Source: an uncultured bacterium (GTDB lineage: Bacteria; Krumholzibacteriota; Krumholzibacteriia; WVZY01). From it: a stretch of 64,000 nt of DNA. This document shows positions 27,825 through 64,000 of this stretch, in pieces (the stretch's first letter is position 1; every line of letters starts with the position of its first letter). The notes beneath the pieces were generated by a model. It worked only from the letters and a program-made list of their open reading frames with translations. It had not been told where the DNA came from and did not search any database. The translations under genes were made by a program, and so were the position numbers. The stretch is taken from NCBI GenBank assembly GCA_964464035.1, contig CAYXEN010000007.1, positions 868-64,867 on the forward strand, in the 5' to 3' direction.

Positions 27825-29462
27825 TTACTGCAAGGGCTTGGAATACTCCCGCTCGATGCGTTCCCTGTACAGGGGACCCGAATTGTACGCGCAGAAGGGA
27901 TATATCATTCCATCGGGAGCCGCGTAATGAATGACGCATCTCTTGAGCCGGTCTATGTTGTAGTTGTAGACATCCTGGAAATGCATTCCCAGGAGAATGA
28001 GAAAACGCCATTTCCTCTTCTTGCCCACGTGGCTCCTGCTCCGAACCAGCGTCGGGCCGAGGGCTCCGAGGAAATCCGCGAAAGTCATTCCCGGAGGGGC
28101 ATCCTCCTGCCTGAAGTATTTCCGCATTATCCTCATCGCCTGGGCGAAGTAGATGGGCTTCTGGAGGAAGCTCCGAAGCTTGCCCGCCAGGTGATCGAGT
28201 TCCACCATGGCCGCCTCCAGGTCGATGAACTGGGTTATGGGGTAAGCCTCGCCTTTCGAATTGACGATGACGTAACAGCCGATGCCGCAATCGGAATGGC
28301 AGCTTATCGTCATCATGCTCTTGCCGCTGAGCGCCTCCATCAGCTTGGAGAGCGGCGAAACGAAAGACAAAGGATACCAGTCGCGCATCGGGTGCGCGAT
28401 CCCGGTCTGCTCGTATACTCCATACGCCAGGTCGGACAGCGTGAAGCGCTGCCTGATCCTCTCTTCGTACGAGATCCTCCCCGTGAATGAGACCGGCTGG
28501 AAACTCACGCCGTTCACGACGTCGAGGTAGTCGATCGCGGTGGATATGATCTCCCCGATCTGGTCCTCGTTGACGCCCCGGGCGAGCGTAGGGACGAGAA
28601 CCACCCTGATCCCAGCTTCCTTGCAATGCTCGAGGCACTTCCTCTTCAAATCCCAGAGATCAGCCGCCCTCGTCACCTTGTACACGTCATCGCCGGTGCC
28701 GTCGAACTGGAGATAGATCGCGTCCATCCCCGCCGCCTTCGCCTTTCTAGCGAAATCGAGGCTCCTGCCCATAGTGATACCGTTGGTGGCGACGAGGACG
28801 TAAGGAAATCCGACTCTCTTCGCCTCGCGAACCGCCCAGAGAAAATCAGGATGAATGGTGGGCTCGCCTCCGGAGAACTGGATCGTCTTGCAACGCCGGG
28901 GCTTGATCGCCCTCACGTTCGCGAGCATCTCGGCGATCTGTTCGCGGCCGACCGTATACTCGTAACCTGCGACATTCGCATTCGCGAAGCAATAGGGACA
29001 GGTCAGGTTGCAACGATTGGTCAGGTCTATTATCGTCATGCAGGCGGTGCTCAGATGCATGTTGCATAGCCCGCAATCCTCGGGACAGCTCACGGCACTC
29101 TGGACTCTGGGATTCGAGATGCCGTCCATGTCCGCAAAGCTCCACTTCTCCATCTTCAGGTACATCCGCACGTCGCCGTAGAACAGGTCCTTGAACTCCC
29201 CGTGCTTCGGGCAACTCTTGCGCATGAAGACCTTGCCTTCTTCTTCGTAGAGAGTGGCCGTTACATGTTCCCTGCACTCGGGACATATGGACGGGACCCT
29301 CTTGGGAAGTCCCTTCGGAGTGTTCTGCGTCGGCACTTCGACCGAAGAGACAGGCGGAGAAGCGATGATGCCTCTTACCTTGTCCGCCAGTTTTCTCGCA
29401 ACACCAGGTATTTCCGCATGCACCTCACGCATTTTCGAGCCTCCTTCTCCCGCAGCATGCAC
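27825..29462 (-). CDS. radical SAM protein with N-terminal zinc ribbon and C-terminal Cys-rich auxiliary-cluster region (Tes/MJ0619-like architecture)
   Basis: CPECREH…CPKHG zinc ribbon, CNLTCPYC radical SAM cluster, GGEPT SAM-binding motif, and a downstream CHSDCGIGCY cluster-like motif. Confidence 0.7.
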   Translation of the reverse strand: MHAAGEGGSKMREVHAEIPGVARKLADKVRGIIASPPVSSVEVPTQNTPKGLPKRVPSICPECREHVTATLYEEEGKVFMRKSCPKHGEFKDLFYGDVRMYLKMEKWSFADMDGISNPRVQSAVSCPEDCGLCNMHLSTACMTIIDLTNRCNLTCPYCFANANVAGYEYTVGREQIAEMLANVRAIKPRRCKTIQFSGGEPTIHPDFLWAVREAKRVGFPYVLVATNGITMGRSLDFARKAKAAGMDAIYLQFDGTGDDVYKVTRAADLWDLKRKCLEHCKEAGIRVVLVPTLARGVNEDQIGEIISTAIDYLDVVNGVSFQPVSFTGRISYEERIRQRFTLSDLAYGVYEQTGIAHPMRDWYPLSFVSPLSKLMEALSGKSMMTISCHSDCGIGCYVIVNSKGEAYPITQFIDLEAAMVELDHLAGKLRSFLQKPIYFAQAMRIMRKYFRQEDAPPGMTFADFLGALGPTLVRSRSHVGKKRKWRFLILLGMHFQDVYNYNIDRLKRCVIHYAAPDGMIYPFCAYNSGPLYRERIEREYSKPLQ

Positions 29463-29825: not shown

Positions 29826-32129
29826 GTGAGAACCCCAAGATTGCTTCTACTGATTACGTCGCTCGCCTTCACGATCTCGATCGCGTCGCCGGCCCGGCCG
29901 GCCGGTTCTTCGTATCTCGTCAGGATACCCTACAAGGCGCCGGCCCAGGTCCGGATGCTCGAGGAGAACGGCATCCGCGTCCTTCACGTATCCCCCCGCG
30001 GCTACATCGACGCCGCGGCCCGCGAGCAGGATCTCACTTTTCTCTTCTCACTCGGTTACGGCATCTCGGTCATTGCTTCTTCGGACATGTCGCTCGCTTC
30101 TCCCACCCTGGGCCCGAACCTCGGCCTCTACCACACTTATGCCGAAATGGAGAGCACCCTCACGGCTCTGGAATCTGCCCATCCCGGCCTGGCCAAGGTC
30201 GAAGTACTCGGCACGAGCCACGAGGGGCGCTTCGTTTACGGGCTCAAGATCTCGGACAACGTGTCCGTAGACGAGGGCGAGCCCGAGGTGTTGATCGTCG
30301 GGAACCATCACGCCAGGGAGCTCATGTCCCTCGAGATTCCGCTGAAACTCGCCCAGTACCTTCTCGCCAACTACGGCTCCGATTCCACCGTGACCTACCT
30401 GGTCGACAACCGCGAGATATTCATCGTTCCAAGCGCCAATCCCGACGGGCACGCCTACGTGGAAGCCAACCACTCGGGGGCCTGGTGGTCCTGGTGGCGC
30501 AAGAACCGGAGGGACAACGGTGATGGGACCTACGGCGTGGACCTGAACCGGAATTACGGCTACAACTGGGGGTACGACAACTTCGGATCTTCTCCATATA
30601 CTTCATCGGAAGTCTACCGCGGTCCCAGCGCGTTCTCCGAGCCCGAAACCCAGGCGATACGCGATCTGGCCCAAAACCATTCCTTCAAACTGGCTTTGTC
30701 GTACCACAGCTACGGGGAGTTGCTGCTCTACCCCTGGGGCTATGCCTTCGCATATACTCCCGACCATGCGCTCTTCCTCGCCCTGGCCGACTCGCTCACT
30801 TCCACGAACGGTTACTATCCCGGCAATCCCGCGATGGGTGCGATATACATAACCAACGGTGACACCGACGACTGGGCCTACGGTGACGACGTGAACAAGA
30901 ACTCGTTCCCGAGCTTCACGGTGGAGGTCAATTCGGATGCGGAAGGCGGTTTCGCCCCTCCCGACACCCTGATCGATCCGACTTTCAACCTGTTGTTGCC
31001 CATGAACATGCAGCTCATCGACCTGGCCGGCGACCCGACCCGCGTCCTGGGACCGCAAAGACCAGTCATGTATCCCGCAAGCGGTTCTTCTTACGGGGTG
31101 TACGTGCTGAGCTGGAGTCCCAGCCCCCCGTCCGATTCCAACCCCGCCGTGAGCTACGATCTGGTCGAGATAAGGAACCTCGGCGCGGCGGTCGATCACG
31201 CAGACACGCTGTCCGACTCGTGGTCCTTTGCCGGCTTCACCTCGGGAACGAGGGCCTACGAGGGCCAAGCGAGCTATTATTCGGGATCGGGGAACAATCT
31301 GTCCAACACGATGACCACCGCTCTCTTCATACCCGTCACCACTTCCACCGACACCCTTACATGCGAAGTGTGGTACGACATCGAATCGAACTACGATTAC
31401 GCCTACCTCGAGTGCAGTACCGACGGGGGGATCACGTGGGAGACGGTGCCCGGGAACATCACCACCAACTTCGATCCCTACGGTTCCAATCACGGAAACG
31501 GGATAACCGGGAGCAGCGGGGGATGGGTTCAGGCTTCATTCCCGCTCGATGCCTATCTTGGGCAGGACGTGCTGCTTCGATTCCACTACGTAACGGACGG
31601 CGCCGTATCGAATGAAGGCTTTTACGTCGATCTCATCGATCCCGTTCCGGTTTACGATACACTGGCGACGGTGGCGGCCGGTCTTGCCGATACGACTTTC
31701 GCCGTCATTCCCGATCAAGTCGGCACTTTCACTTACCGTGTGCGAGGCCGGGACGCCGAAGGCCAGCTCAGCACCTGGAGCATATCGCAATCCTTTACGG
31801 TGGACCAGTTGACGTCGGTGGCGACGCAGCCTGCGATGGCCAGCTGGCTCGGATCCAACTATCCCAATCCTTTCAATCCCGAGACCATGATCCCCTTCCG
31901 CGTGGGCGGCGCCGCGGGAGCCCGCGTGCACGTGCGCCTGGCTGTCTACACGCCCACCGGGCGGCTCGTGAAGATCCTCGAGAATCGATCGCTGGAGCCG
32001 GGATTGTATCGCTCTTCATGGGACGGAACCGACGAGTCGGGAAGAACCGCGGCAAGCGGCATCTACATTGCACGCCTAATCGTCGACGGCCGAAAGCAGT
32101 TCACGAGGAAACTCGTTCTCCTCAAGTAG
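29826..32129 (+). CDS. secreted M14-family zinc carboxypeptidase with C-terminal T9SS-type sorting domain
   Basis: GTG start with SD GGAGG and a signal peptide. M14 HxxE motif (GNHHARE) with downstream zinc-His context. The C-terminus SGIYIARLIVDGRKQFTRKLVLLK resembles Por_Secre_tail. Confidence 0.8.
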   Translation: MRTPRLLLLITSLAFTISIASPARPAGSSYLVRIPYKAPAQVRMLEENGIRVLHVSPRGYIDAAAREQDLTFLFSLGYGISVIASSDMSLASPTLGPNLGLYHTYAEMESTLTALESAHPGLAKVEVLGTSHEGRFVYGLKISDNVSVDEGEPEVLIVGNHHARELMSLEIPLKLAQYLLANYGSDSTVTYLVDNREIFIVPSANPDGHAYVEANHSGAWWSWWRKNRRDNGDGTYGVDLNRNYGYNWGYDNFGSSPYTSSEVYRGPSAFSEPETQAIRDLAQNHSFKLALSYHSYGELLLYPWGYAFAYTPDHALFLALADSLTSTNGYYPGNPAMGAIYITNGDTDDWAYGDDVNKNSFPSFTVEVNSDAEGGFAPPDTLIDPTFNLLLPMNMQLIDLAGDPTRVLGPQRPVMYPASGSSYGVYVLSWSPSPPSDSNPAVSYDLVEIRNLGAAVDHADTLSDSWSFAGFTSGTRAYEGQASYYSGSGNNLSNTMTTALFIPVTTSTDTLTCEVWYDIESNYDYAYLECSTDGGITWETVPGNITTNFDPYGSNHGNGITGSSGGWVQASFPLDAYLGQDVLLRFHYVTDGAVSNEGFYVDLIDPVPVYDTLATVAAGLADTTFAVIPDQVGTFTYRVRGRDAEGQLSTWSISQSFTVDQLTSVATQPAMASWLGSNYPNPFNPETMIPFRVGGAAGARVHVRLAVYTPTGRLVKILENRSLEPGLYRSSWDGTDESGRTAASGIYIARLIVDGRKQFTRKLVLLK

Positions 32130-33676: not shown

Positions 33677-34723
33677 TCACCTCACGATGACGGAAACGGA
33701 TTCGGGAGCAAGCACTTCACCTATCACGGCGGCTCGAGCGTAACTCTTCAGGAGCTCTTCGAGGAGTTCGTCGCACTTTTCCGGCGGAGAAGATATCAGC
33801 AGTCCGCCCGAAGTCTGTGGATCGAAGAAGGCGTGAATCAACTCCTCCTCGACGCCGCTCCCCACCCGCAACTTGTCTTCGAGGAACATGCGGTTCGTTC
33901 CACCGCCGCCGGTCAGCATGCCGCGGCGCACGTACTCCAGGCAACTTCGCATCAGCGGAACCCGGGCCGCGTCCAGTGCGAGGCTCACGCCGCTGGCTTC
34001 GGCCATTTCCAGCGCGTGCCCGAGCAAACCGTAGCCTGTTATATCCGTGCAGGCGTGCGCACCCGATGCGATCATCGCCCTGGCGGCGTCGCGGTTCAAC
34101 GAGCTCATCACCTCGATGAGTTCCTCGTACTCCGACGACTCGAGCTTCTCCGCTTTCAGCGCGGTGGTAAGGACCCCGGAACCGAGCGGTTTGGTAAGAA
34201 TGAGCTTGTCTCCGACCTTTGCCGAAGAGTTCATGACGATCTTGTCCGGGTGCACGAACCCGGTGACGGACAGCCCGTACTTCAATTCCTTGTCTCTGAC
34301 CGTGTGTCCGCCGACTATCGCAACGTTCGCCTGCTCCGCAGCTGCGGCGCCGCCGCGTAGTATTTCGACCAGGATCTCGTTCTCCAGATCACCCTCGGGG
34401 AAGGCCGCTATGTTGAGCGCGGTGACGGGCTCCGCCCCCATCGCGTAGATATCGCTCAACGCATTGGCGGCGGCCACCCGGCCGAAATCGAAGGGATCGT
34501 CCACCACGGGCGGAAAGAAATCGACCGTCTGCACGAGCGCCAGATCCGGGGCGATACGATACACTCCGGCGTCGTCGGCAAGCCCGTGACCTACGAGAAG
34601 ATCAGGGTCCGGCCGCGTCTCGATCTTGTCCAGTATGCCGCGCAGGCCCGCCGCGCTGAATTTCGAAGCTCACCCGGCGCAGGAAGCATACTGTGTCAGT
34701 CTTATTTTCTTTCCTTCGTTCAT
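33677..34723 (-). CDS. selD: selenide, water dikinase (selenophosphate synthetase) SelD, selenoprotein form with in-frame UGA at the Cys17-equivalent position
   Basis: The ORF track starts at GTG 34564. Extending the same frame upstream gives MNEGKKIRLTQYASCAG-TGA-ASKFSAAGLRGILDKIETRPDPDLLVGHGLADDAGVYRIAP…, which matches the E. coli SelD N-terminus (IRLTQYSHGAGCGCK…DPNLLVG…DDAAVY). The ATG at 34723 has SD GGAG. Confidence 0.8.
34670..34672 (-). other. in-frame TGA read as selenocysteine in selD; a GC-rich hairpin immediately downstream (about 34625..34660) is a candidate bacterial SECIS
   Basis: The frame is continuous across the TGA. The conserved SelD N-terminal motif spans the codon. Confidence 0.7.
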
Positions 34724-50884: not shown

Positions 50885-52021
50885 TCAAAAAGCAAGGGCA
50901 TGTTCCAAATCCGCTTCGAGATCTTCCACGTCTTCTATGCCCACCGATATCCTTACCAGTCCATCCGTGATCCCGAGCGCTTCCCTGTCTTCCTTGGGAA
51001 CACTGGCATGCGTCATGGTGGCCGGATGGCTGATCAAACTCTCTACTCCTCCCAAGCTTTCGGCGAGCGTAAAGATTCTCGTGCGTTCCAATACCTTGCT
51101 CGCATTCTCCAGCGAACCCACGTCGAAAGATATCATTCCTCCGAACCCGCGAGCCTGCCTCTTCGCCAGTTCGTGGTGGGGATGATCTTCCAGCCCGGGA
51201 TAGTTCACGTGAACGACCTTCGGATGAGTCTTCAGGAATACGGCGAGACGCCTCGCATTGGCATCATGCTGGCGCATGCGAAGAGCCAGTGTCTTCGTCC
51301 CGCGTAGGGCCAGCCAGCAATCGAACGGCCCTGGGACCGCTCCCACCGCGTTCTGGATGAAGTGCAGCTTCTCGCTCAGTTCCTCGTCGTTCACCACCAC
51401 CACGCCGCCGACCATGTCGCTGTGCCCGTTCAGATACTTGGTAGTGCTGTGCACGACGATGTCCGCCCCCAGCTCGAGCGGGTTCTGCAGATACGGGCTC
51501 ATGAACGTGTTGTCAACGGCCATAAGGGCGTTTCGTGAGTGCGCCGCCTTCGCGACGGCCGCTATGTCGGTGACACTGAGGACGGGGTTGGTTGGAGTCT
51601 CCACGAACACCAGCCGCGTCGATTCCGTAATGCTCTTCTCAACGATATCGAGATCCGTCGTATCGATGAATCCGGCGGTGACGCCGAAACGCTTGAGCAC
51701 CTGATCGAAAAGCCTGTAGGTTCCCCCGTACACGTTGTTTGTAATCAAGATCTCGTCTCCCTCGTTGAAGAGACGAATGACGGCGTCTATCGCGGACAGG
51801 CCGGAAGCGAACGCGATCCCGAACCTGCCGCGCTCGAGAACGGCGACGTTGCGCTCGAACGCCTCACGCGTGGGATTCTGCGTCCGCGCGTACTCGTACC
51901 CTCTGTGCTTGCCCAGACCGTCCTGCTTGTATGTCGACGTCTGAAAGATAGGAACCATGACGGCGCCGGTGACCTTCTCCGGCTCCTGGCCGCCGTGAAC
52001 CGCATCCGTGGAAAAACCCAT
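50885..52021 (-). CDS. cystathionine gamma-lyase / gamma-synthase family PLP enzyme (trans-sulfuration)
   Basis: PLP-Lys motif HSTTKYLNGHSD, with Cys/Met-metabolism family motifs throughout. The start at MGFSTDAVHGG has the strong SD GGGAGGAG. Confidence 0.85.
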   Translation of the reverse strand: MGFSTDAVHGGQEPEKVTGAVMVPIFQTSTYKQDGLGKHRGYEYARTQNPTREAFERNVAVLERGRFGIAFASGLSAIDAVIRLFNEGDEILITNNVYGGTYRLFDQVLKRFGVTAGFIDTTDLDIVEKSITESTRLVFVETPTNPVLSVTDIAAVAKAAHSRNALMAVDNTFMSPYLQNPLELGADIVVHSTTKYLNGHSDMVGGVVVVNDEELSEKLHFIQNAVGAVPGPFDCWLALRGTKTLALRMRQHDANARRLAVFLKTHPKVVHVNYPGLEDHPHHELAKRQARGFGGMISFDVGSLENASKVLERTRIFTLAESLGGVESLISHPATMTHASVPKEDREALGITDGLVRISVGIEDVEDLEADLEHALAF

Positions 52022-52125
52022 TTCACTCCTCCCGAGTTCTTGCCCTTTACCCATGCTTCTTCCCGACTCCCCTGTGAAGCGATCACCGGGAAGACGACTA
52101 TCCCCGCTTCAGGGGATCAAGATCA

Positions 52126-53517
52126 TCAATCCATCTCCGAAATCATGTACTCTACGAGATCGTATTTCGTAAGGATCCCGACCACGTTTCCATCGTCGCG
52201 TACGAGGACCGCTGCGCTCTTCTGGGCGAGAAGCTTGAGAGCTTCCTGGTAGGATGCATCGCTATCCACGATCGGGAACGGTTTGCCCATCACATCGGCG
52301 ACCGGTTCCTCGCCGGATATCTTGCCCGAGAGGATCTTGTCCATCACTTCGCCCTCGATCACTCTCCCCACCCATTGCTCGCCCTGCTTCACGGGAAGCT
52401 GGGACACGTTGTAGGTCTTCATCTGATCAAGTGCTCTATGGATGGCATCCTCCGATTCGGCGTAGACCAGCGGGGGCAGTGCGGCCGCCTTGCCGTGCAG
52501 GAGATCACCCACGGTGAGGAGTTTGGCGTCCAGCATCCGGTTCTCTCTCATCCACTCGTCTGAATGGAACTTGGAGAGATATCTCTCGCCCGTATCGGGA
52601 AGCAAAACCACCACTACTTTGTCTTCGTCGAGATCGCGGGCCACTTTGAGAGCGGCTGCAACGGCGGTTCCCGCGGAACCGCCGACCATCAACCCTTCCT
52701 CCCGCGAAAGCCTGCGCGCCATGTTGAAGGATTCCTTGTCGGAGATTCTCACTACCTCGTCAACGTAGTCCATCTCGAAAGTCCCGGGAACTATGTCTTC
52801 CCCGATCCCTTCCACGAGGTACGGATGGGCTTCGCCCTTCTCTTTCGTGTAGAAGTAATCCTTGAGGATGCTGCCTACCGGATCGACGCCGATGACCTTG
52901 ACCGAAGGTTTCTTCTCCTTGAGGAATCTTCCCGTTCCGCTCACGGTGCCGCCCGTCCCGATGCCGGCCACGAAATAATCCACGCGGCCCGCGGTATCGC
53001 GCCAGATCTCCGGTCCCGTGGTTTCGTAATGGGCTTGCGGATTGAGCTTGTTGAAATACTGGTTGGCCAGGACCGCGTTGGGGGTCGTCTCGACTATCTT
53101 GCGCGCCACGGAGTAATAGCTCTTCTCCGAGTCGGGGGGAACGGCGGTGGGACAGGTTATCACTTCGGCTCCGTAGGACTTGAGCAGCCTGATCTTCTCC
53201 TTGCTCATCTTGTCCGGCATGGTGAATATCGCCTTGAACCCCATGACCGCAGCCACAAGGGCCAGCCCCACGCCGGTGTTGCCGGACGTGCATTCCACTA
53301 TCGTGCCGCCCGGCTTGAGCTTGCCCTGCCTGATCGCATCCTCGATCATCTTGACGCCGATCCTGTCCTTGACACTCCCGCCCGGGTTGAAGTACTCCAC
53401 CTTCGCCAGGACCGTAGCCTTTATGCCGCCGGTCACTTTGTTCAGCTTCACGAGGGGTGTGCCGCCGATCGTCTCCAGAATATTCTCCGCGTAACGCATC
53501 CCGTCTTGATTCGTCAT
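52126..53517 (-). CDS. cystathionine beta-synthase (PLP cysteine-synthase fold plus tandem CBS domains)
   Basis: PLP Lys in NPGGSVKDRIG, GNTG and GTGGT motifs, and a C-terminal CBS pair. The start at MTNQDG has an SD. Confidence 0.85.
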   Translation of the reverse strand: MTNQDGMRYAENILETIGGTPLVKLNKVTGGIKATVLAKVEYFNPGGSVKDRIGVKMIEDAIRQGKLKPGGTIVECTSGNTGVGLALVAAVMGFKAIFTMPDKMSKEKIRLLKSYGAEVITCPTAVPPDSEKSYYSVARKIVETTPNAVLANQYFNKLNPQAHYETTGPEIWRDTAGRVDYFVAGIGTGGTVSGTGRFLKEKKPSVKVIGVDPVGSILKDYFYTKEKGEAHPYLVEGIGEDIVPGTFEMDYVDEVVRISDKESFNMARRLSREEGLMVGGSAGTAVAAALKVARDLDEDKVVVVLLPDTGERYLSKFHSDEWMRENRMLDAKLLTVGDLLHGKAAALPPLVYAESEDAIHRALDQMKTYNVSQLPVKQGEQWVGRVIEGEVMDKILSGKISGEEPVADVMGKPFPIVDSDASYQEALKLLAQKSAAVLVRDDGNVVGILTKYDLVEYMISEMD

Positions 53518-53696
53518 TTCACTCCGCGGCTTCGACTTTCGCCGCTTCCTCCCTTCTCGAAATTGGTTCCGTCCTCCTCGATACTTCAATAGGCCCGATC
53601 CAACGGGGGAACACGTTCATCTTCAAATCATCCGTTCAATTTATATCACATCACCGGTGGGAAATCAATGAGGGCGGACGGACGTCGCAAAGCACG

Positions 53697-56075
53697 TCAA
53701 CGCAGGAGAACCAGTTTCTTGACCTGCACGCGGTCCCCGGCGGCGGCCCTGAGGAAATAGATTCCGGAAGAGACCGTTTCCCCGCGGTCGTTCCTGCCGT
53801 CCCAACTGGTCGTAACGACCGTCGAGCGAAGTTCATCCCTGTACACGATCTTCACGAGCCTTCCCGTCACGTCGTATATCCTCACGTCCACCCGGGTCGG
53901 AACCTCCTCCACCAAGGACGCCGATCGCCCCATCCCCCGAGAACCGCCCGTGGGCGGTCCGGTCTCGCGATAGCTTGGAGGGATGAAAATCGAAAAGCTC
54001 GTGGACCCGCTGAACGGGTTGGGAACGGCGTTCGAAACCAGCTCGCCGCTGTGCATCGGGAGCATCGCCGTTACCTCGACGGTTCCCGAGTCCATGGTGA
54101 AAACCTTCGTGCCGCCGTGAAAGTCAAGCCCGAAAGTCCCCCGCACGAAATAGCGATATTTCGTACCCGGAGTGACCGTGGTGTCGGTGAACTCGTACGG
54201 CGTGTAACCGTCACCCGCCACGCCGGACGGGTGAAGACCCGAGACGATGAGCGTGTCCTCGCCGGGCGAAACGGCCACCCTGTAGAGATCGAAGCGGGCT
54301 CCGAAAGTCTCGCCGAACATCCTCCATTCGAGGGTTATGCCCCGGTTCGCGACCTTGACTTCGAAGAGAGAATACTTCAGGCCGAGATTGTAGATTCTCT
54401 TCGTTATCACTCCGGAGGATATGCCCACCCTGGTTCGGACCTTGATTCCCACTTCCGTGAGCCCCACCGGAATCGATTTCAATTTCACGACCAGGTCCTC
54501 TTCCGGCTCGTCCCACTTTCCGTCTTCCGGCGTGAGAATGATGTTTCCCGAACCGCTCACACTGAGAAACCCGTCCTGGAGAGGGGCCGCGTAGTCGATG
54601 CGCGTTTCTTCGGGTTGGGCGGGATTGCGGTTCTCGACCGGCACGGACACCGCCTTGCATCTGACCGTGACGTCCGAAGCGAGCAGCGTCTCCGCGCTGG
54701 AATTCTCGAAGATGACGGTGGGCGTAGATTGGTAGAGATCCGGCACGCTGTTGTCGTCCGCATCCACCACGCCCATCATGCCCGCGGTGAAAAAGCAGAT
54801 GGGTCTTCCCAGGTCCTGTTTCGCCTGGGCCATGATGCAGTAATCCAGGTCCCTGCAACCCGTTGGACGTCCGTATGGGTCGACTTCGAGTATCTTGTTC
54901 TTGTTGTAGTAATCCAAGTAGCCGGAATGGGCGTTGCAATCTCCTATCGCCGACTTATACTCGTCTAGGGCCCAAAATATATGGCAAGTCTCGTGTTGAA
55001 ACACCTGCGAGAAGAGAAGGACCTGGTCGATGCCGTACGGATTGCTTCCCGCCGGGTAGGGGATCACGAGATAAGGGCCTCCCAGATATGCATAGGCCGT
55101 GTAGCGGGCATCCTTGAACAGATGGCCGGGAGCGTTGGCGCTGTTGGCCACGAAGGCGGTGAAAACCCAGTTCGTTCCGTAGTGTTTCCTCCCGTCCTCG
55201 TTGAACTCGTGCACTATCAATATGGGATCGCCCTTGCTCACGTCGTAACCCATGTTGGCCATCACGTCGTTTATCCAGACGTGGTCCGAATCGTCGTTGT
55301 GATCGATCGGTTCGAACTGGGTTCTCGCCCTTTGGAACAAACGAAAGGTGAGGTCGATGGGGTAGATCGAGTACTCCTCCTGGAAGTCGAGCATTGCTGA
55401 GTATACGCCGCTTATCGCATCAGAGAGCCGGGCGTCACTCCAATTTTCTTCGCCGCCGTCGCTCTCCGGAAAGATCACCTGCACTAGTATCTCGCCCATC
55501 ATGAACTCGCTGTTCTGGCTGGGATTGCGCATGACCTCGCCCGGGGACGAAGCGGCCGCCTGCGGTTTCCATTTCTTCATGACGCGCACGGGCACGCGGA
55601 GAACCTTGTCCGAAAACCCCGGATCCTCCGGTGGAATCCCCGGCTCGTGTGCTTTCGCATCGACGGATGCTCTCGGCGAATACGCCCTTCCGATCTCCCT
55701 CAATCCCGGGAAGAATCGAGAATCGGAGCCCGGGCCCGCCGCCTTGTCGAGCACCCCGGGCAATAGTTCCATGCCCTCGGCGGCCGCGAGCGCCGCTTCG
55801 CTCACCCCCTCGGGCAAATCACACACGATATACGAAGGGAGAAAGGCGTTCACGTGCACCGCTCCCGCATCCAGGAGCCTGGCCTTGAAGGCCAGGAGAT
55901 CCTTCTCCGTTCCTCCCCGGTTGAAAAAAACCGCGCGGTGATAATTCATCCCGCGCACCGGAATATTCCCCGTGTGTTCCAGCACGCCCACGCGACGGGC
56001 CGTCGTCACCGTCGCAGGGAGTGAAAAGACGGCGACCAGGCCGAACAACAAGGACCTCGCGAGCAGCGTTCTCAT
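53697..56075 (-). CDS. secreted HExxH zinc metalloprotease (metzincin-like spacing with Asp third ligand, possibly M6/InhA-like) with C-terminal T9SS-type sorting domain
   Basis: The start at MRTLLARSLLFGLVAVFSLPA (signal peptide) has SD GGAGG and overlaps the stop of the upstream gene (ATGA). Motif QHETCHIFWALDEY. The C-terminus SGIYFLRAAAGDRVQVKKLVLLR is near-identical to the M14 protein tail. Confidence 0.6.
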   Translation of the reverse strand: MRTLLARSLLFGLVAVFSLPATVTTARRVGVLEHTGNIPVRGMNYHRAVFFNRGGTEKDLLAFKARLLDAGAVHVNAFLPSYIVCDLPEGVSEAALAAAEGMELLPGVLDKAAGPGSDSRFFPGLREIGRAYSPRASVDAKAHEPGIPPEDPGFSDKVLRVPVRVMKKWKPQAAASSPGEVMRNPSQNSEFMMGEILVQVIFPESDGGEENWSDARLSDAISGVYSAMLDFQEEYSIYPIDLTFRLFQRARTQFEPIDHNDDSDHVWINDVMANMGYDVSKGDPILIVHEFNEDGRKHYGTNWVFTAFVANSANAPGHLFKDARYTAYAYLGGPYLVIPYPAGSNPYGIDQVLLFSQVFQHETCHIFWALDEYKSAIGDCNAHSGYLDYYNKNKILEVDPYGRPTGCRDLDYCIMAQAKQDLGRPICFFTAGMMGVVDADDNSVPDLYQSTPTVIFENSSAETLLASDVTVRCKAVSVPVENRNPAQPEETRIDYAAPLQDGFLSVSGSGNIILTPEDGKWDEPEEDLVVKLKSIPVGLTEVGIKVRTRVGISSGVITKRIYNLGLKYSLFEVKVANRGITLEWRMFGETFGARFDLYRVAVSPGEDTLIVSGLHPSGVAGDGYTPYEFTDTTVTPGTKYRYFVRGTFGLDFHGGTKVFTMDSGTVEVTAMLPMHSGELVSNAVPNPFSGSTSFSIFIPPSYRETGPPTGGSRGMGRSASLVEEVPTRVDVRIYDVTGRLVKIVYRDELRSTVVTTSWDGRNDRGETVSSGIYFLRAAAGDRVQVKKLVLLR

Positions 56076-57005: not shown

Positions 57006-58403
57006 TCAATGGGCTATCTTCCGCCAGGCCCTGGAAAAGTCGAATGTGGGGTCTTGTTCCTTAGTATGGCACTGCGTGCAACTCTCCGAGGCGCGGGAGG
57101 CGTAGGTGCCGTCCCTCTTGTGCTCCGCCCCCGGCCCGTGGCACGCCTCGCACTGGACCTCGACCAGATCAACGGGAGAGCCGATGATGCGTGATCCCGT
57201 GTATCCCCCGCGCTTGCCGTAACCCGTCGAGTGGCACGAGATACAGCTCGAATCACGCTGCTTGAATTGCGAGGCCAGGGTTTCGTACGCCCTGGCGTGT
57301 TTGGTGCCCGCGTAGATCCGGAAAGCGTCCGCGTGGCATCGGATGCAGTTGCCCAGGCCCAGGTAGATGTCACCGGGCCCGGCGTTGGAGGTGTTGCCCT
57401 TGAGCATCTGCTTGGCATAGAGTTCTTTCTGCTTCTTCTTGTTCTCTTCGTCGAAACTCTTGATGATGGCGGCCACCCGCTCGTCGTCGGGCACCCTCTT
57501 GTTAAGTGTATATATGTTGTTCCTCGTATCGGCGATCTTGCCTTCGGGGTCGAGCGCCACGCGCAGGACACCGACCGCCTGCCCGTGGAAGGTAACCTTG
57601 TAGACCGGCACGGTCCCCATCATGTACGGTTCCTTGGTTCTCTCCGTCTTGTCGCCGTGCCCCAGAACGGCGAAATCGAACTGCGGGAAGTCGGGGAGAA
57701 TCTTCTCCAGATCCTCCCTGTCCATGTGCGCGAGAAGTACCAGGATGTCGCATTTCCGGCGGACCTCGGGCACCAGCTTTTCGAGTATCGGGGCCGGATC
57801 CTTCAGCACGTAAGTGAGGGCTTCGACTTTCTTCGCGCTCCCGCGCCGCGGATTCCTCACCTTGGTGCGGGGGGAGAGAACGGCTATGAAACCTATCTTG
57901 ATCCCCCCGCGCGAGACGATTCTGTACGGAGGGAAGACCGGCTTCCGGCTCACGACGGTTTTCCCGCCCTTTCCCGCCTTCTTGCGGAACAAGTTCGCGC
58001 AGACGAGATTCAGTTTGTTTTTCTTGTAATCGGCGTAGAGCTTGTCGAGGCCTCGGCTCAGGTCCATTTCGCCGACGGCCACCGCATCGTAGCGGAGATA
58101 TGCAAGCATGCGGGCCACGAAATGGTCCTTCGGCTCGTTGTAGACGTTCCCCCCGCCGAAGAAATCACCGGCGGAACAGAGGACGAGGAAGCCGGAGAAG
58201 TCCGACTGCTCCTGCAATTGCTTTATCAGGGTCGCCCGCCGGGCGAAGCCGCCAGTGGCGTTGGCGTGTCACCCGCAAGGCTGATAATAGCCTCTCGTAT
58301 CGCTGTTGTACACCAGCTGAAAAGATCTGTATCCGGATCCGGTCTTGGGCGGAATGCATCCCGCGAAGAGCGCGGCCAGCACGAGGGCAAACGCGATTCT
58401 CAT
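57006..58403 (-). CDS. candidate selenoprotein: lipoprotein with degenerate calcineurin-like metallophosphoesterase domain fused to a C-terminal tetraheme cytochrome c domain, in-frame UGA in a C-G-U motif
   Basis: ATG at 58403 with SD GGGAG. Translation gives MRIAFALVLAALFAGCIPPKTGSGYRSFQLVYNSDTRGYYQPCG-TGA-HANATGGFARRATLIKQL-QEQSDFSGFLVLCSAGDFFGGGN…, continuous with ORF 57006..58217. Four CxxCH motifs are present (CIRCH, CISCH, CEACH, CTQCH). The only signal peptide is upstream of the TGA. Confidence 0.55.
58269..58271 (-). other. in-frame TGA (putative selenocysteine codon) within the 57006..58403 gene; GC-rich hairpin candidates lie immediately downstream (about 58215..58265)
   Basis: Frame continuity was checked codon by codon. 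The TGA sits 44 codons after the ATG and 18 codons before the ORF-track start. Confidence 0.5.
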
Positions 58404-58585
58404 ATTCGGGAACTCCCACTATAAAGCCGTCATCGATTTAACCTTCTGATTTATAAGCAAGATATCATATCGTCCGCCGCCGGGCAAGCATTGATTCCGG
58501 AGCGCGGGGCCCGGGAGGACGGCCCCGGCCACCGGAAAAAGAACTGAAATGTTCCTAAAGCCGGCCTCCAAATCCTCCGATAAGC

Positions 58586-58670: not shown

Positions 58671-60299
58671 TTGATAATCCGAACCAAGCACATAGCCACC
58701 AGGCTTTTTATCCTGCTCGCCCCGTTCACGCTCGTTGCATTCGGCATCTACACCTTCATAGAAATCGGCCTGGTGAACAAGAACTTGACCGAAGTCTTGG
58801 TCAACGACGTCTACAATGCCGGCAGCGGGCTGGAACGCTCTTTCGAGAAAGAGATGGTTCACGGGAAAGGTTACGAGCTTTCGGAAATGGTCGATGATAT
58901 ATGCGAAGGGTTTTCGCTGAACGACGTGGATATCTACACGCCGAACGGCGAGCTCAAAGCTTCGACTGATTCGCTTCTTTCGACCAGGCAGCGCACCTCC
59001 GCCGAGCCACTCTGTTCCAACTGCCACGATCCGGAGATGAAACAAAAACCCATCCTCGGTGAGCGCAGGACGGTCATCGAGAAGGATGCCAAGGGGGACA
59101 AGGTTCTGAACCTCCTCTATCACGTACCCAACAAGCCCGATTGTTTCAACGCGGATTGCCACGTGCATTCCCCCGACAACAAGTTCAACGGTGTGATAGT
59201 CGTCAAAGCTTCGCTCGTGCCGATCAGGGCCATGACCGCACAAATAAGGAACAAGCTCATAATCGCGGCGATCATAATGATCACTCTCACCAGCTTCCTG
59301 GCGAGCTTTCTCATAAATAGAGTGCTCAGGCATCCCATGAAGCAACTTCTGGAAGGAGTGGAAACACTATCCTCGGGCAACCTCAAGGCGAGGATCAACC
59401 TGACGGACGAGCAGGACGACGGAAACAAGAACACGACGCTCGTCGAACGGCTGATCGCGGGAGGCAAGGAGGACGAACTGGCAAGCCTGGCCGATGCCTT
59501 CAACTCGATGAGCGCAAATCTCGAGCGAATACTATCCAGCATACGTGAGGTGAGCCTGCGCATAACGACGGCGGGCGAGGAACTGAGCGCAGCGTCCGAG
59601 CAACAGGCCCAGGAGAGCAGGATTCAGTATGCCAAGATATCCGAGTCCATAAATGCGGCCCTCAAGTTGAGCAAGCAGGCTGAAAACATCGCTGAATCGA
59701 TAAAGACAATCGAAGAATCGGCCGAGAAGACCCTCTCCGGAATGAAGGCGATGAAACACATCGTGGAAGGCTCGTCCCGCCAGATCGAGGACCTCGGCGA
59801 CGAGATGCAGAAAATCATCAAGATCGCCGAGTTGATCCACAGCATAGCCGACGAGACCAACCTCCTTGCGCTCAACGCGGCGATAGAGGCCGCCCATGCC
59901 GGTGAGCACGGTGCCGGCTTCGCCGTAGTCGCAGACGAGGTCAGGCGCCTTGCCGACAGGACGACCGACGCGGCCAGAGAGATAACGACGACGATAAGTA
60001 TCATTCACGGTGAAGTGAAAGCTACAATCCAGGACACGAACAACACCGTCAAAGAAGTGGCGGAGAAGGCCGACCTGGCCAGCAAGACTTCCTCTCTGTT
60101 CAAGCACATAAGCCAAAGCGTCAAGGAGCAGCTGGATGCGAGCAAGCACATCGAAGAAGCACTCAAGGAGGCAAACGACATAATCGAGCAATTCGCCGCC
60201 GGAGCCCAGCAGACATCCGAGGCGTCGGACGAACTCATGACTCTTGCTCTCAAACTCCAGTCTTTGTCCGAAGAATTCAAACTGGTCGAGATCCAATAG
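58671..60299 (+). CDS. methyl-accepting chemotaxis protein with periplasmic sensor domain carrying two c-type heme binding motifs
   Basis: TTG start with SD GGGAAGGA. TM1, a periplasmic region with CSNCH and CFNADCH (two CxxCH), TM2, HAMP, and an MCP signalling domain ([31 protein letters not shown]). Confidence 0.8.
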
Positions 60300-60347: not shown

Positions 60348-60641
60348 TTACTTGCGGATCCGCTCTTTCAGAGAACGTCCTGCGCTGAAGGCAGGAAAGC
60401 GAGTTGCGGGAATCGTGATGGGTTCTCCAGTCTGCGGGTTTCTGCCTTCACGCTTCTTCCTCTTCCTGGTCTGGAAGGTTCCAAAGCCGGTTATCTGCAC
60501 CCTCCTTCCGGCGTTGAGTTCGGAAGCGATGATGCCTTCTTTCGGCACGGTGCTGAATATGACATCCACCACCGTCTTTGCGTCCTTGAGCGTGAGACCC
60601 GTCTTGCGGGCTACCTTCTCGACCAATTGCGTCTTGTTCAC
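60348..60641 (-). CDS. hup: HU-family nucleoid DNA-binding protein
   Basis: MNKTQLVEKVA…GFGTF…RNPQTGEP is the classic HU/IHF fold signature; 97 aa. Confidence 0.85.
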   Translation of the reverse strand: MNKTQLVEKVARKTGLTLKDAKTVVDVIFSTVPKEGIIASELNAGRRVQITGFGTFQTRKRKKREGRNPQTGEPITIPATRFPAFSAGRSLKERIRK

Positions 60642-60791
60642 GAGATCACCTCCTTCCTGTTCTTATCAGCACTTTAGACCACTAAAAAAAATCCTGTCAA
60701 TAGAATTTCTCGAAAAAACCGATAAGGACGGGATCTTTCGGCCCTCCAAGAAATTCACCCCCAAGGGCGCATGCGCTCCGAGGCTCCCGTA

Positions 60792-63700
60792 TCAGTAGAA
60801 CGACGGCATGCCCAGACCGGATCCCAGCCCCCTTCTCCCGGATTCCGCGTAGACTTCGGGGTGGGCCTTGATGTCGATGCGGAAATAATATTGCCATTCA
60901 CTGCCGAGTTTCTGGCGGGCGAAAGACATCTCCCAGCAATGAAGATCCCTGTACACGGTGTAGTTCTGTCCCATGAATTTCCTGCCCTCGACGTCGTAAG
61001 TCGTTGAATACGTTATCTTCCAGTTTCTAGTCAGCTGGATGCTGCCGTTCAGGTTCAGGGTGGAACGCGCAGGTCCGGCCTTGGACTTGGAATAACTGAA
61101 CGCCATCGCCACGTACCAGGGGTCACCCTTGGGTTCAGCCTCTCTTTCCGGCCCGCTCTCTTCTCTCACGGAGGTCGACCCTGAAGTGTCACGGGCCGCC
61201 ACGTTGAGTTCGCGCAGGACCTCGGATCCCGAGACTCCGAACGGGTGATGCCCGCTCAGGCTGAGCGAAGAAGTGACCTGGGTGGAGAGGAGCTCACCTT
61301 GATAGGGCTCGATGGTCTGGTTGAAAGAAACGCTGGTCCCGAACAGCTTGAGGTTGACCCTGCTCGATACGGTGCTCCATCCCTTTCTCTCGGGAGCCTT
61401 CGGGTTGTAGCTGGCGCCGAGCGACCAGATGAAGATGCTCGGAATCTTCCTCGTCCCTTCGCCTTTCTTCACCTTGATGTCGACGGCGTTGGTGAGGTTC
61501 ACGTTGAACCCCTGGGACGAGGGACGCGAGCCCACCCTGGGATTGTACGAGTACGTCACCGAGGGAGTGATCGTATGCCTTATGCCCGCAAGCGGGCCGA
61601 TATCGGGATAGAAAGTTCCATAGAAATTCGTCCTCAGCGCGGCCCCCGTCGACCAGCGGAACAGGTTGTCGGTCGTAATCGTCTTCGACGATGGAACGAA
61701 AGTCGTATCCGTCGACCCGAAGTTGTTGGTTATCTCCTCGTGCTCCGTCACCTTCCGCATCGTCCTCGTGTAGGAGTTGCTCGCGGACAGCGATGGAGAA
61801 AAATTGAGAAAAAATATCTTCCTCGGACTCGAGAAGCTGAGCCCCGAGTTCTGAGTGATGGTCTCCTTGTACTCATAGCGACGTTCCTCGGTGGTGCGAT
61901 CCATGGAAACGCGGGGCGAATAGCGGATTCCCCCGAGGAACTTTTCCCAGAAGGATTTCTTGCCGCGCTTGGTCGCCTTGCCGAAATAGAGGTTCCGCGA
62001 CGGAATCGAGAGGGAAATACTGGGGAGCGACGTGCTCACCCTGATCACGTCGGGATCCTCGACGTTCAGTTGCTGTATCCTGCGCAACGACGCGCTGAAG
62101 CCGACGGAGTTCCACGATTTCCTGAGACTCAGGCGGGATTCTATCCTTCTCTCCACTACGTTCGCCACCTGGTCGATCCTGCTTATCGCACCGGGCGCCT
62201 TGTCGCTGCTGACGAACCGGAGATCACTCTGCAAGGAGAATTTCTCGCCCAGGGTCTGCTGGTGGCGCGACGTGACCATCCACTCGTTGGCGAACGAACG
62301 AAGATCGCGATAGAAAGAGAATTGAACGTTTCCGCTCAGGCGATAACGCAACTTGTAACGGTTCTCGATCAGCATCCTCAGGGATGCGTCCTCGTTGAAG
62401 TCGGCCAGAAACTTGAAGTCGGTGTAATCGTTCGTTGCCCAGTAGTAACCGAAGTTTCTTATGTAGCGCCCCGTGGATTTCGTGATGCCGAACTCGAACT
62501 CCGGCCTGAGAATACCTGACTTGCGCCCCCGGCTGATGTTGTTGGCGAGAAAAGGGAGATAGGCTATGGGCGTATTTCCTATGTACAGCCAGATGGGACC
62601 GGATATGACCTTGTCGCGCAGGAAAACCTTCATTTCCTTGCTCGCGAAATGATAATGAGGCACCTTGAGGTCGCAGGTGGTGTATGTGGAATTCCAGACC
62701 TTCAACTGGTTGTCTCCCACTTTGGCCACGTCTTCCCCGAAATAGTAACCCTGTTGGAACTTGGTCGAACCGTCCCGTACGAGCCCGACGCCCGATTCCA
62801 GGTCGTAGTCCATCCTGCTTCCATAGAACTTGTCGGTCCCCTCGATCAGGACGGGTGAGCCCCTGGCATCGAGGAGCTGGAGGTTCGAATTGTAGGTTAT
62901 CTCCTTTCCCGTGAGGGTCCGGTTCTGGTAGTAGATCCTGGCTCCGTCCTCGAGCAGGATGTCCTTCTTGTCGGCGAGGAATTCTATCTTGTCGGCCGAA
63001 TAAGACACCTTTTCGGCGTTCTTTGCGAAAGGGATATAAGTCAAGGAACTGTCCAAGACGGTCCGAAGACTGTCGCATGTCTGGCCCTCTCTTAAGTTGA
63101 CGTACTCGTATACGCCTTCCGCATTCCCGAAGATGGCCACGTGCGAAAGGGTATCGTCGGAGAAAGTGAAGAACATCGAATCCCCCCGCACGTAGTTGCG
63201 CTCCACCTTGTTCGTTCCGACCGGGTAGTACTCGCTCGTGCTGTTGCCTTTTACGGCTATCGAATCGAGATCATTGTCGCTCAGGTACAGGGTCATGGAA
63301 TCGCCTCGGATCCAGTTCTCCCTGCCCATTACCAGGGAATCGGCTTGTTGCTCGCTGATGAGGGCGTTGCCGAGGATCCTTATCCGGTCGACTTCGCTTC
63401 CCGAATAATGGAGAACCATCTCGTCACCCTGCATGGACGCCTTGCCCTGCCTGGCGAGGGGGTGGCCGTAGAGCTCGGCGGTCTTGGTCTCGTCGAATAC
63501 AGCCGCCGAGTCGCACTGCGTCACCGTCTCCCCCTTTATTATCTTTACCCGGCCGTAGGCCGTGGCCCGCCTGGTGTCCGGGTAGAAACGCATCGTATCG
63601 CTGACGACGGTGGCGGGTTCGTCGCTCCCGGGATCAACTATGAGATGCGGATCTCGATCCACTACTCCCTCCCCCCGCTCCCTGAAGTAGAACCCGTGTT

Positions 63701-64000
63701 TTCCCGTTACAGTGAAACCCTCTTCGGAATTGGTTATTTTCACTCGGCCGAATACTTCCGCCTTCATAGATTCGCGATCGTAGTAGAGACTATCCGCTTC
63801 CAGGGTCGTGGTGGAATCGGCGGCGCGCACATCGCCAACGAGCCATAATTCCCCCGTGCGGCGATGCATGATCGCCTTCTTGCATGTGATTCTCCACCCG
63901 CGGTCGTGAATGTGGACGTTGCCTTTCAACAGGGCGATGTCCTCGATGCGTCGGTATACCCCTTCGTCTCCTTCCATTAGGAGTTTATTCTGCCTTATCT
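60792..64000 (-). CDS. lptD: LPS-assembly outer-membrane protein LptD-like (OstA N-terminal repeats plus beta-barrel), 5' end truncated by the window edge
   Basis: Repeated OstA-like beta-jellyroll segments followed by a long beta-barrel region. There is no signal peptide after the first in-window Met (63977), so the gene probably starts beyond nt 64000. Confidence 0.65.
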   Translation of the reverse strand, partial: IRQNKLLMEGDEGVYRRIEDIALLKGNVHIHDRGWRITCKKAIMHRRTGELWLVGDVRAADSTTTLEADSLYYDRESMKAEVFGRVKITNSEEGFTVTGKHGFYFRERGEGVVDRDPHLIVDPGSDEPATVVSDTMRFYPDTRRATAYGRVKIIKGETVTQCDSAAVFDETKTAELYGHPLARQGKASMQGDEMVLHYSGSEVDRIRILGNALISEQQADSLVMGRENWIRGDSMTLYLSDNDLDSIAVKGNSTSEYYPVGTNKVERNYVRGDSMFFTFSDDTLSHVAIFGNAEGVYEYVNLREGQTCDSLRTVLDSSLTYIPFAKNAEKVSYSADKIEFLADKKDILLEDGARIYYQNRTLTGKEITYNSNLQLLDARGSPVLIEGTDKFYGSRMDYDLESGVGLVRDGSTKFQQGYYFGEDVAKVGDNQLKVWNSTYTTCDLKVPHYHFASKEMKVFLRDKVISGPIWLYIGNTPIAYLPFLANNISRGRKSGILRPEFEFGITKSTGRYIRNFGYYWATNDYTDFKFLADFNEDASLRMLIENRYKLRYRLSGNVQFSFYRDLRSFANEWMVTSRHQQTLGEKFSLQSDLRFVSSDKAPGAISRIDQVANVVERRIESRLSLRKSWNSVGFSASLRRIQQLNVEDPDVIRVSTSLPSISLSIPSRNLYFGKATKRGKKSFWEKFLGGIRYSPRVSMDRTTEERRYEYKETITQNSGLSFSSPRKIFFLNFSPSLSASNSYTRTMRKVTEHEEITNNFGSTDTTFVPSSKTITTDNLFRWSTGAALRTNFYGTFYPDIGPLAGIRHTITPSVTYSYNPRVGSRPSSQGFNVNLTNAVDIKVKKGEGTRKIPSIFIWSLGASYNPKAPERKGWSTVSSRVNLKLFGTSVSFNQTIEPYQGELLSTQVTSSLSLSGHHPFGVSGSEVLRELNVAARDTSGSTSVREESGPEREAEPKGDPWYVAMAFSYSKSKAGPARSTLNLNGSIQLTRNWKITYSTTYDVEGRKFMGQNYTVYRDLHCWEMSFARQKLGSEWQYYFRIDIKAHPEVYAESGRRGLGSGLGMPSFY

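Follow-up and report, generated by a model that had tools for sequence, protein, structure and literature searches.

A probable selenoprotein of the UshA-like PCGU family, split by gene callers at an in-frame UGA

UshA-like selenoproteins have been in print since 2008, when Zhang and Gladyshev reported 'COG0737, UshA-like, CxU' (76 selenoproteins in 20 GOS samples, 92 Cys homologues; PMC2398784). A 2022 review names a 'UshA-like protein, CxU' among selenoproteins (PMC9312934), and a 2026 review lists the same protein and cites the curated model NF041198 (PMC13188914). The family is already known, computationally only; we found no functional study of it in the searched literature, and nothing there on a nucleotidase or metallophosphoesterase combined with a multiheme protein. 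Here, we analyse a relative encoded in 64,000 nucleotides of contig CAYXEN010000007.1, from an uncultured bacterium of the Krumholzibacteriota; this whole stretch is referred to as the window. Positions 57006..58403 of its minus strand appear to hold one gene for a 465-residue lipoprotein with selenocysteine (Sec) at an in-frame UGA and four heme-c sites. A preliminary description of this DNA proposed a new selenoprotein family, a claim that has to be withdrawn, as NF041198 is named for the same motif and the family dates from the 2008 report. We assign a probability of about 0.85 to the reading that the window gene is a mis-split member or, strictly, a near-threshold relative, of the UshA-like PCGU selenoprotein family.

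With Sec replaced by Cys, the window protein has NF041198 (UshA_like_PCGU, 'UshA-like (seleno)protein') as its top NCBIfam match, with E=2e-79 and 267.5 bits. The alignment falls into two stretches, one of which pairs residues 291-457 with profile positions 348-519, so that the heme-binding C-terminus already falls within the curated family. In common with this family, the window protein has an N-terminal P-C-G-U (P42-C43-G44-U45; PCGC in homologues), a 5'-nucleotidase-fold domain, a C-terminal tetraheme region and a hairpin within the open reading frame (ORF) after the UGA; unlike the profile, it is short, with 465 aa compared with 519 positions. The fold assignment draws on a weak Pfam Metallophos match, NCBIfam matches to SoxB and UshA, a CD73 profile from the Protein Data Bank (PDB) at 1e-18 and Foldseek. 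NF041198 was likewise the top match for all 10 homologues reconstructed from different clades, at 199-356 bits. Against a curated cutoff of 275 bits, the Rokubacteria member (L062) scores 356, two Deltaproteobacteria (L049 and L056) 348 and 346, an uncultured bacterium (L078) 316 and the Eisenbacteria member (L019) 290; below it are a second uncultured bacterium (L007) at 270, the window protein itself at 267.5, Gemmatimonas (L028) at 249, Krumholzibacteriia (L001) and Blastocatellia (L070) at 246 each, and a Krumholzibacteria member with A-G-U in place of C-G-U (L013) at 199.5. Deltaproteobacterial, Rokubacteria and Eisenbacteria members thus range from 290 to 356 bits, whereas the branch of the window protein, with Krumholzibacteria, Latescibacteria and Fibrobacterota-type labels, ranges from 200 to 270. 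Just under the cutoff lies a divergent Krumholzibacteria/Latescibacteria-like branch that includes the window copy. Family 2 of the UshA-like selenoproteins (NF049981) is also a selenoprotein family, and its N-terminal phosphoesterase-like region is homologous to the window protein; it differs in its CxxU motif and its 262-position model. The window protein has CxU and reaches 51.7 bits on this model, with a match over residues 29-113 only, and therefore lies outside a family defined by CxxU and a score of at least 140 bits.

Three further described systems resemble parts of the protein. Structural comparison used an AlphaFold2 (AF2) model of a Cys homologue, P0043, rather than of the window protein; its N-terminal domain has a predicted local distance difference test score (pLDDT) of ~90, and the heme-free cytochrome domain is poorly modelled. 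In Foldseek, this N-terminal domain matched 3ive, CD73, 2z1a, 1ush and the SoxB structure 2wdc with E ~1e-17. The 5'-nucleotidases UshA, CD73 and TTHA 5'-NT (1ush, 4h2i, 2z1a, 3ive) have the N-terminal dimetal fold in common with it (TM ~0.5), and the GD motif and two downstream His ligands are found both in these enzymes and in the window protein. The window protein differs from them in having D-T-R for DxH and G-E-M-D for GNHE, and in the addition of a Sec loop and a tetraheme domain; no Pfam match to 5_nucleotid_C, the C-terminal nucleotide-binding domain, was obtained at E<=1, and the cytochrome domain stands at the C-terminus instead. The thiosulfohydrolase SoxB (TIGR04486; 2wdc, 4uwq) has the same fold, is periplasmic and takes a sulfur compound as its substrate. 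Among NCBIfam models it ranks second for the window protein, at 61.4 bits far below the cutoff of 550; unlike the window protein, SoxB has neither Sec nor a heme domain, and its sox gene context is absent here. Cytochrome c554 (PF13435; 1bvb/1ft5) has a tetraheme domain like that at the C-terminus of the window protein (1bvb, E=7e-13), where it is fused to a larger enzyme, whereas cytochrome c554 is a free electron carrier.

The annotated ORF occupies 57006..58217 on the minus strand, begins at a TTG and encodes 403 aa (MQEQSDFSGF...) without a signal peptide. Four CxxCH sites for heme c are encoded toward its C-terminus, and export is therefore needed. An ATG at 58403..58401 lies in the same frame, 44 sense codons 5' of the annotated start, and the only break between the two is a TGA at 58271..58269, immediately 3' of Cys43-Gly44 (...YYQPCG). 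These features, the export-deficient TTG start and the single TGA after Cys-Gly, had been pointed out in the preliminary description and were recovered here from the sequence, as was a ribosome-binding site with a lipoprotein signal at the upstream ATG. A Shine-Dalgarno-like GGGAG (58417..58413, minus strand) stands 9 nt 5' of the ATG, and by inspection the first 16 codons (58356..58403) specify a signal peptide of the lipoprotein type, MRIAFALVLAALFAG, whose lipobox Cys16 is encoded at 58358..58356; the chain would continue from this residue as CIPPK..., and F-A-G-C agrees with a lipobox. Among homologues, some have lipoboxes and others type I signals. The window protein is probably lipid-anchored. 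Translation of 57006..58403 gives 465 residues with one internal stop, and the frame closes with a TGA at 57008..57006; the JGI gene caller reports the same DNA as two genes, of 44 and 403 aa.

A homologue search with the read-through product, again with U replaced by C, yielded 332 relatives in two length classes: entries of ~395-405 aa begin at the start of the annotated ORF, and those of ~470-488 aa span the whole query. Cys forms account for ~20 full-length matches among the 332. The long homologues (P0042, P0043, P0045, P0049 and others) start upstream of the site with their own signal peptides, contain YESDTRAYYRPCGCN and have Cys exactly at the TGA column, in the pattern ...YESDTRAYYRPCGCNxNSAGGLxRRAAL..., which is the outcome that the preliminary description had asked a homologue search to look for. 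When each GTDB species was represented by one genome, a scan showed the family to be widespread, with 480 confirmed relatives among these representatives. Eighty loci were kept, and all counts of site codons and conservation given here refer to the 65 sites that could be parsed automatically. The codon aligned with the UGA is TGA at 58 of the 65 species-level loci and TGC or TGT, for Cys, at the other 7. Taxon labels of the parsed loci include Krumholzibacteria, Fibrobacteraceae-labelled metagenome-assembled genomes (MAGs), Gemmatimonas, Eisenbacteria, Acidobacteriota, Rokubacteria, Deltaproteobacteria and Desulfobulbaceae. Read from these codons, Sec forms dominate over Cys forms in the family, a new point of this analysis. 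One locus (L075) has two paralogues ~4 kb apart, a TGA form at 3612 and a TGC form at 7813, with the same motif position.

The assignment of the UGA (58269..58271) to Sec45 has to be weighed against three other readings. Automatic callers treat the codon as a true stop, which would leave a 44-aa lipopeptide and a separate 403-aa protein from the TTG at 58217, or a pseudogene, and most database homologues are indeed deposited at ~400 aa. Coding is, however, conserved between the TGA and the TTG; as the invariant GG-x-x-RR is encoded there, the annotated start cannot be correct. Moreover, 58 species retain both the frame and the TGA, the Cys forms run continuously across the site, the 403-aa product would carry four heme-c sites without an export signal, and a SECIS-type (selenocysteine insertion sequence) hairpin covaries downstream of the codon. 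A true stop or split gene is contradicted by these comparative data and is highly improbable. The existence of Cys forms, at the 7 parsed loci and in the ~20 full-length matches, would also allow an ordinary Cys codon, TGC or TGT, to have become TGA through a sequencing or assembly error. This explanation is rejected, and we regard it as even less probable than a true stop: two independent JGI metagenome samples (3300038380 and 3300023503; L081 and L082) have the same sequence, TGA included, the nearest relatives L001-L005 all have TGA, and the UGA-linked hairpin is present. By arithmetic on the locus table, the 153-kb JGI contig Ga0434945_000204 (L081), which carries the identical gene, would begin ~26.5 kb after position 1 of the window; the window and L081 are seemingly different assemblies of the same or a near-identical organism.

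A third reading, that UGA is reassigned to Trp or Gly throughout the organism, finds some encouragement in the Patescibacteria label of a related locus (L009). UGA reassignment occurs in Patescibacteria. Yet the selenoprotein gene itself stops at TGA, as do at least five further window genes (lptD, a gene for a type IX secretion system (T9SS) protein, and those for cystathionine gamma-lyase, an M16 peptidase and a helicase), so the recoding is local; the homologues, for their part, have Cys and not Trp or Gly at the TGA column. Global reassignment is already contradicted by these TGA stops and the aligned Cys, and ranks as the least credible of the three. Comparison across the family thus strongly supports reading the locus as one gene, wrongly split by gene callers, for a selenoprotein that is exported and has Sec at the UGA.

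RNA structure downstream of the UGA was assessed in a gap-free alignment (A3) of 59 sequences over 63 nt from the UGA. A hairpin with the consensus GnnUGGCCC-GGA-GGGCCACCU is located 22-40 nt 3' of the UGA; its arms occupy columns 23-31 and 35-43 of A3, with a GGA/GGC triloop in columns 32-34. Standard pairs are present in 86.6% of cells for this structure; sliding the 3' arm by 1-3 columns lowers this share to 38-50%, and reduces the number of pairs with changes on both sides from 6 of 9 to 2-5. The covariation score is 0.344, as against 0.165 for shuffled alignments, 0 of 500 of which reach 0.344, and at most 0.106 for slid arms; RNAalifold independently recovered the 5-bp core. We take this as formal covariation support for a SECIS hairpin in the UshA-like family, which is new if modest. 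The hairpin overlaps the codons for a conserved peptide, G-G-(L/V/F)-A-R-R-A. It is missing from 6 of the 7 Cys-codon homologues, which encode the same peptide, and hence appears tied to the UGA and not to the protein sequence. The sole keeper is the TGC homologue L051, in which 6046..6108 contains the complete SECIS-type hairpin (CUGGCCC-GCA-GGGCCGG), as might be expected if Sec had recently been converted to Cys.

The window sequence forms the hairpin in the family register at 58229..58249 on the minus strand, with a core of UCGCCC/GGGCGA (58246..58241 with 58237..58232) closed by a GGC triloop (58240..58238). Seven of the 9 family pairs form, and the loop begins 28 nt after the UGA; its position and the G-rich apical loop would agree with the criteria of bSECISearch. 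The gene thereby shows the generic marks of a bacterial selenoprotein, namely an in-frame UGA aligned with Cys and, just downstream within the ORF, a hairpin with a G-containing apical loop. Further support comes from selD (selenide, water dikinase; 33677..34723, minus strand; TIGR00476, 382.7 bits, cutoff 125), which carries its own UGA at 34672..34670 (LTQYASCAG*ASKF), at the catalytic position, and therefore requires Sec machinery. The earlier report of a selD with an in-frame TGA in the window is thus confirmed, and the gene supports decoding of UGA as Sec in this organism.

Several observations weigh against this placement. The window protein falls 7.5 bits short of the curated NF041198 cutoff and so outside strict equivalog membership; its nearest relatives reach 246-270 bits, and the whole branch labelled Krumholzibacteria, Fibrobacterota or Gemmatimonas lies with it at 200-270 bits. 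The window hairpin has only 6 contiguous consensus pairs; folded as a single sequence, the RNA after the UGA does not reach significance (z -1.0 to -1.7), and its minimum free energy (MFE) structure is a different hairpin that overlaps the first and has a GCUU loop. Rfam gave no matches at gathering thresholds across the whole window. In the 64 kb, ARAGORN found no tRNA-Sec, nor any tRNA at all, and motif scans found neither selA nor selB. The window sequence alone being unconvincing, the SECIS call rests on the comparative evidence. With these points taken into account, family identity together with Sec recoding of the window gene remains very likely from the comparative data, and we hold the pair slightly more firmly than the full reading of a mis-split family member.

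The predicted protein comprises two domains. Residues ~29-330 (57414..58319, minus strand) correspond to a metallophosphoesterase-fold domain of the 5'-nucleotidase/UshA/SoxB type, as judged by alignment to CD73 motifs, Foldseek and family conservation. Residues ~345-465 (57009..57371) form a tetraheme cytochrome c554-like domain; Pfam places the cytochrome c554-type domain at residues 353-423, and PF13435 scores 51.8 bits, above its gathering score of 20.8. The four CxxCH sites are residues 353-357 (57347..57333), 387-391 (57245..57231), 418-422 (57152..57138) and 442-446 (57080..57066), and four such sites are present in 64 of 65 members.

Alignment to the CD73 profile shows that the canonical dimetal motif set is incomplete in the window protein and eroding in the family. 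The DxH motif reads D35-T-R in the window copy; its Asp is kept in 48 of 65 members and its His in only 9. GNHE is replaced by G-E112-M113-D114, with Glu in 43 members and the catalytic-His position never conserved (0/65). The Asp of GD (D80) is retained in the window protein and in 45 members, as are the first downstream His (H226; 45) and the second (H249; 41). Conservation of the canonical ligands thus amounts to 63-74%. By contrast, the G-U...GG..RR loop and a further Gly (G44, U45, G51, G52, R55, R56 and G79 in the window protein) are invariant, at 64-65 of 65, with G44 and U/C45 present in every member. The Cys before Sec (C43) occurs in 59 of 65, replaced in the others by Ala (five) or Val (one). 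The CxU redox motif described earlier therefore stands for the window protein, which has C43-G44-U45, but cannot be extended to the family, as 6 of 65 members have A-G-U or V-G-U; since these members do without the Cys, Sec and not a Cys-Sec pair is the invariant element. P-A-G-U is found in L006, L009, L013, L018 and L027 and P-V-G-U in L030, and these members score lowest on NF041198. The A-G-U subclade further suggests that a resolving Cys at a distance of two residues is dispensable for the chemistry.

Because G-U...GG-x-x-RR is invariant while the dimetal ligands decay, Sec-centred redox chemistry supplied by the four hemes seems likelier than phosphoester hydrolysis. In the scheme that we propose, SelB would read the hairpin, so that Sec is inserted during translation; the protein would then be exported unfolded via the Sec pathway and receive its four c-type hemes in the periplasm. 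On a phosphoesterase scaffold that has decayed, Sec45 could serve as the reactive centre of a redox enzyme, with help from Cys43 in most members, and electrons would be exchanged with the four hemes; a selenenylsulfide with Cys43 would be possible but not obligatory. The product is most likely a periplasmic, membrane-anchored redox enzyme, and the pattern of conservation points to the Sec loop plus the heme chain, and not the ancestral dimetal site, as the selected functional centre. A redox mechanism in place of hydrolysis is, in our estimate, not quite an even bet. The full proposal is more tentative than that, and we hold it to be less likely than not. By it, the UshA-like PCGU family, including the sub-threshold branch, would not be a phosphoesterase; in its evolution a dimetal 5'-nucleotidase scaffold would have been gutted and a new Sec loop wired to four c-type hemes, to give a periplasmic oxidoreductase centred on Sec. 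Sulfur, selenium or metalloid species are candidates for the substrate of such an oxidoreductase.

Three findings argue against a redox role of this kind. The window copy has all of D35, D80, E112, H226 and H249, and a metal site may persist; no conserved redox partner genes were found in the neighbourhoods of the 80 loci; and the C-G-C loop has a pLDDT below 50 in the P0043 model, a confidence too low to place it relative to the metal site and the hemes. The main rival to the redox mechanism is that the protein still works as a UshA/SoxB-type dimetal hydrolase, perhaps a SoxB-like thiosulfohydrolase or a sulfur- or selenium-ester esterase. In such an enzyme, Sec45 and Cys43 would act as extra metal ligands or form a structural selenenylsulfide resembling the Cys51-Cys57 disulfide loop of CD73, and the heme domain would only dock or relay electrons for a partner. 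The retained residues, among them E112 as a carboxylate in place of Asn, would suit such an enzyme, as would the second-best NCBIfam match and the Foldseek match to SoxB (61 bits; 2wdc) and the position of the Sec loop directly after the first metal-ligand motif. CD73 has its disulfide loop in the same position. On the other hand, none of the 65 members keeps the catalytic His of GNHE, and only 9 have the His of DxH; D80, H226 and H249 are each missing from 20-24 of the 65, whereas G-U...GG..RR is invariant; 5_nucleotid_C is lacking, the SoxB score of 61 is to be read against a cutoff of 550, and no sox genes are nearby. On balance, we consider a surviving dimetal hydrolase unlikely.

For annotation, the practical value of the Sec reading is that one 465-aa selenoprotein should be entered here, not ORFs of 44 and 403 aa. 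The branch below the NF041198 cutoff (Krumholzibacteria, Latescibacteria and Fibrobacterota-type labels) escapes the curated model, and its members are deposited almost everywhere as a truncated 'hypothetical protein' or 'multiheme c-type cytochrome' of ~400 aa; Sec forms are therefore systematically missed. No new selenoprotein category is opened by the present locus. The novelty is modest, and beyond the dominance of Sec forms and the covariation of the hairpin consists of the A-G-U subclade without Cys, the decaying ancestral active site and the branch that escapes the curated model. With an invariant Sec loop, eroding metal ligands and a tetraheme module always attached, the Sec-dominated family nonetheless offers a concrete starting hypothesis for characterization; were the gutted-nucleotidase oxidoreductase to prove true, it would be a repurposing without earlier biochemical description.

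The selenoprotein gene appears solitary, with nothing in its surroundings that hints at function. Upstream of it, on the same strand, are hup (encoding HU) and lptD, with a divergent chemoreceptor gene between them and the selenoprotein gene. The order lptD, hup, selenoprotein gene (window 60348..63977, minus strand, and upstream regions of L001-L074) is conserved, with all three genes on one strand, at 35-45 of the 80 loci, in a Krumholzibacteria/Fibrobacterota-labelled superclade. Across the 80 loci, the common neighbours are lptD (45), hup (35) and a gene for a DnaQ-like exonuclease, which is housekeeping synteny only, and clustering of all neighbours at these loci revealed no conserved redox or sulfur-metabolism partner. 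The lptD-hup-selenoprotein order is probably synteny rather than a functional link. On the 3' side, a gene for a 283-aa protein without a family match is followed by one whose 792-aa product has a T9SS sorting tail, and then by those for cystathionine beta-synthase and cystathionine gamma-lyase. The last two (50885..53589, minus strand; TIGR01137, 530.6 bits, for the beta-synthase, adjoined by an enzyme of the cystathionine gamma-lyase or gamma-synthase family) lie ~3.4 kb 3' of the selenoprotein gene, and this reverse-transsulfuration pair recurs in close relatives only (8-11 loci).

Among the other window genes, the chemoreceptor gene (58671..60299, plus strand) encodes a methyl-accepting chemotaxis protein with HAMP and MCP signalling domains and, in its periplasmic part, CSNCH (a CxxCH) and CFNADCH, which suggests a heme-c-binding sensor; it is found beside family members at only 1 of the 80 loci. 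Two large secreted proteins, encoded at 53697..56075 (minus strand) and 29826..32129 (plus strand), have T9SS C-terminal sorting-domain signals (TIGR04183; weak PorU-tail match), as would suit a window derived from the FCB superphylum. In what seems to be a member of this FCB group, a radical-SAM protein (27825..29462, minus strand) matches NF045702, 'tetraether lipid synthase Tes', with 522.5 bits against a cutoff of 450, and partly matches the model of the radical SAM (seleno)protein TrsS with 338 bits, below its cutoff of 490. Bacterial Tes homologues are candidates for the synthesis of membrane-spanning (brGDGT-type) lipids.

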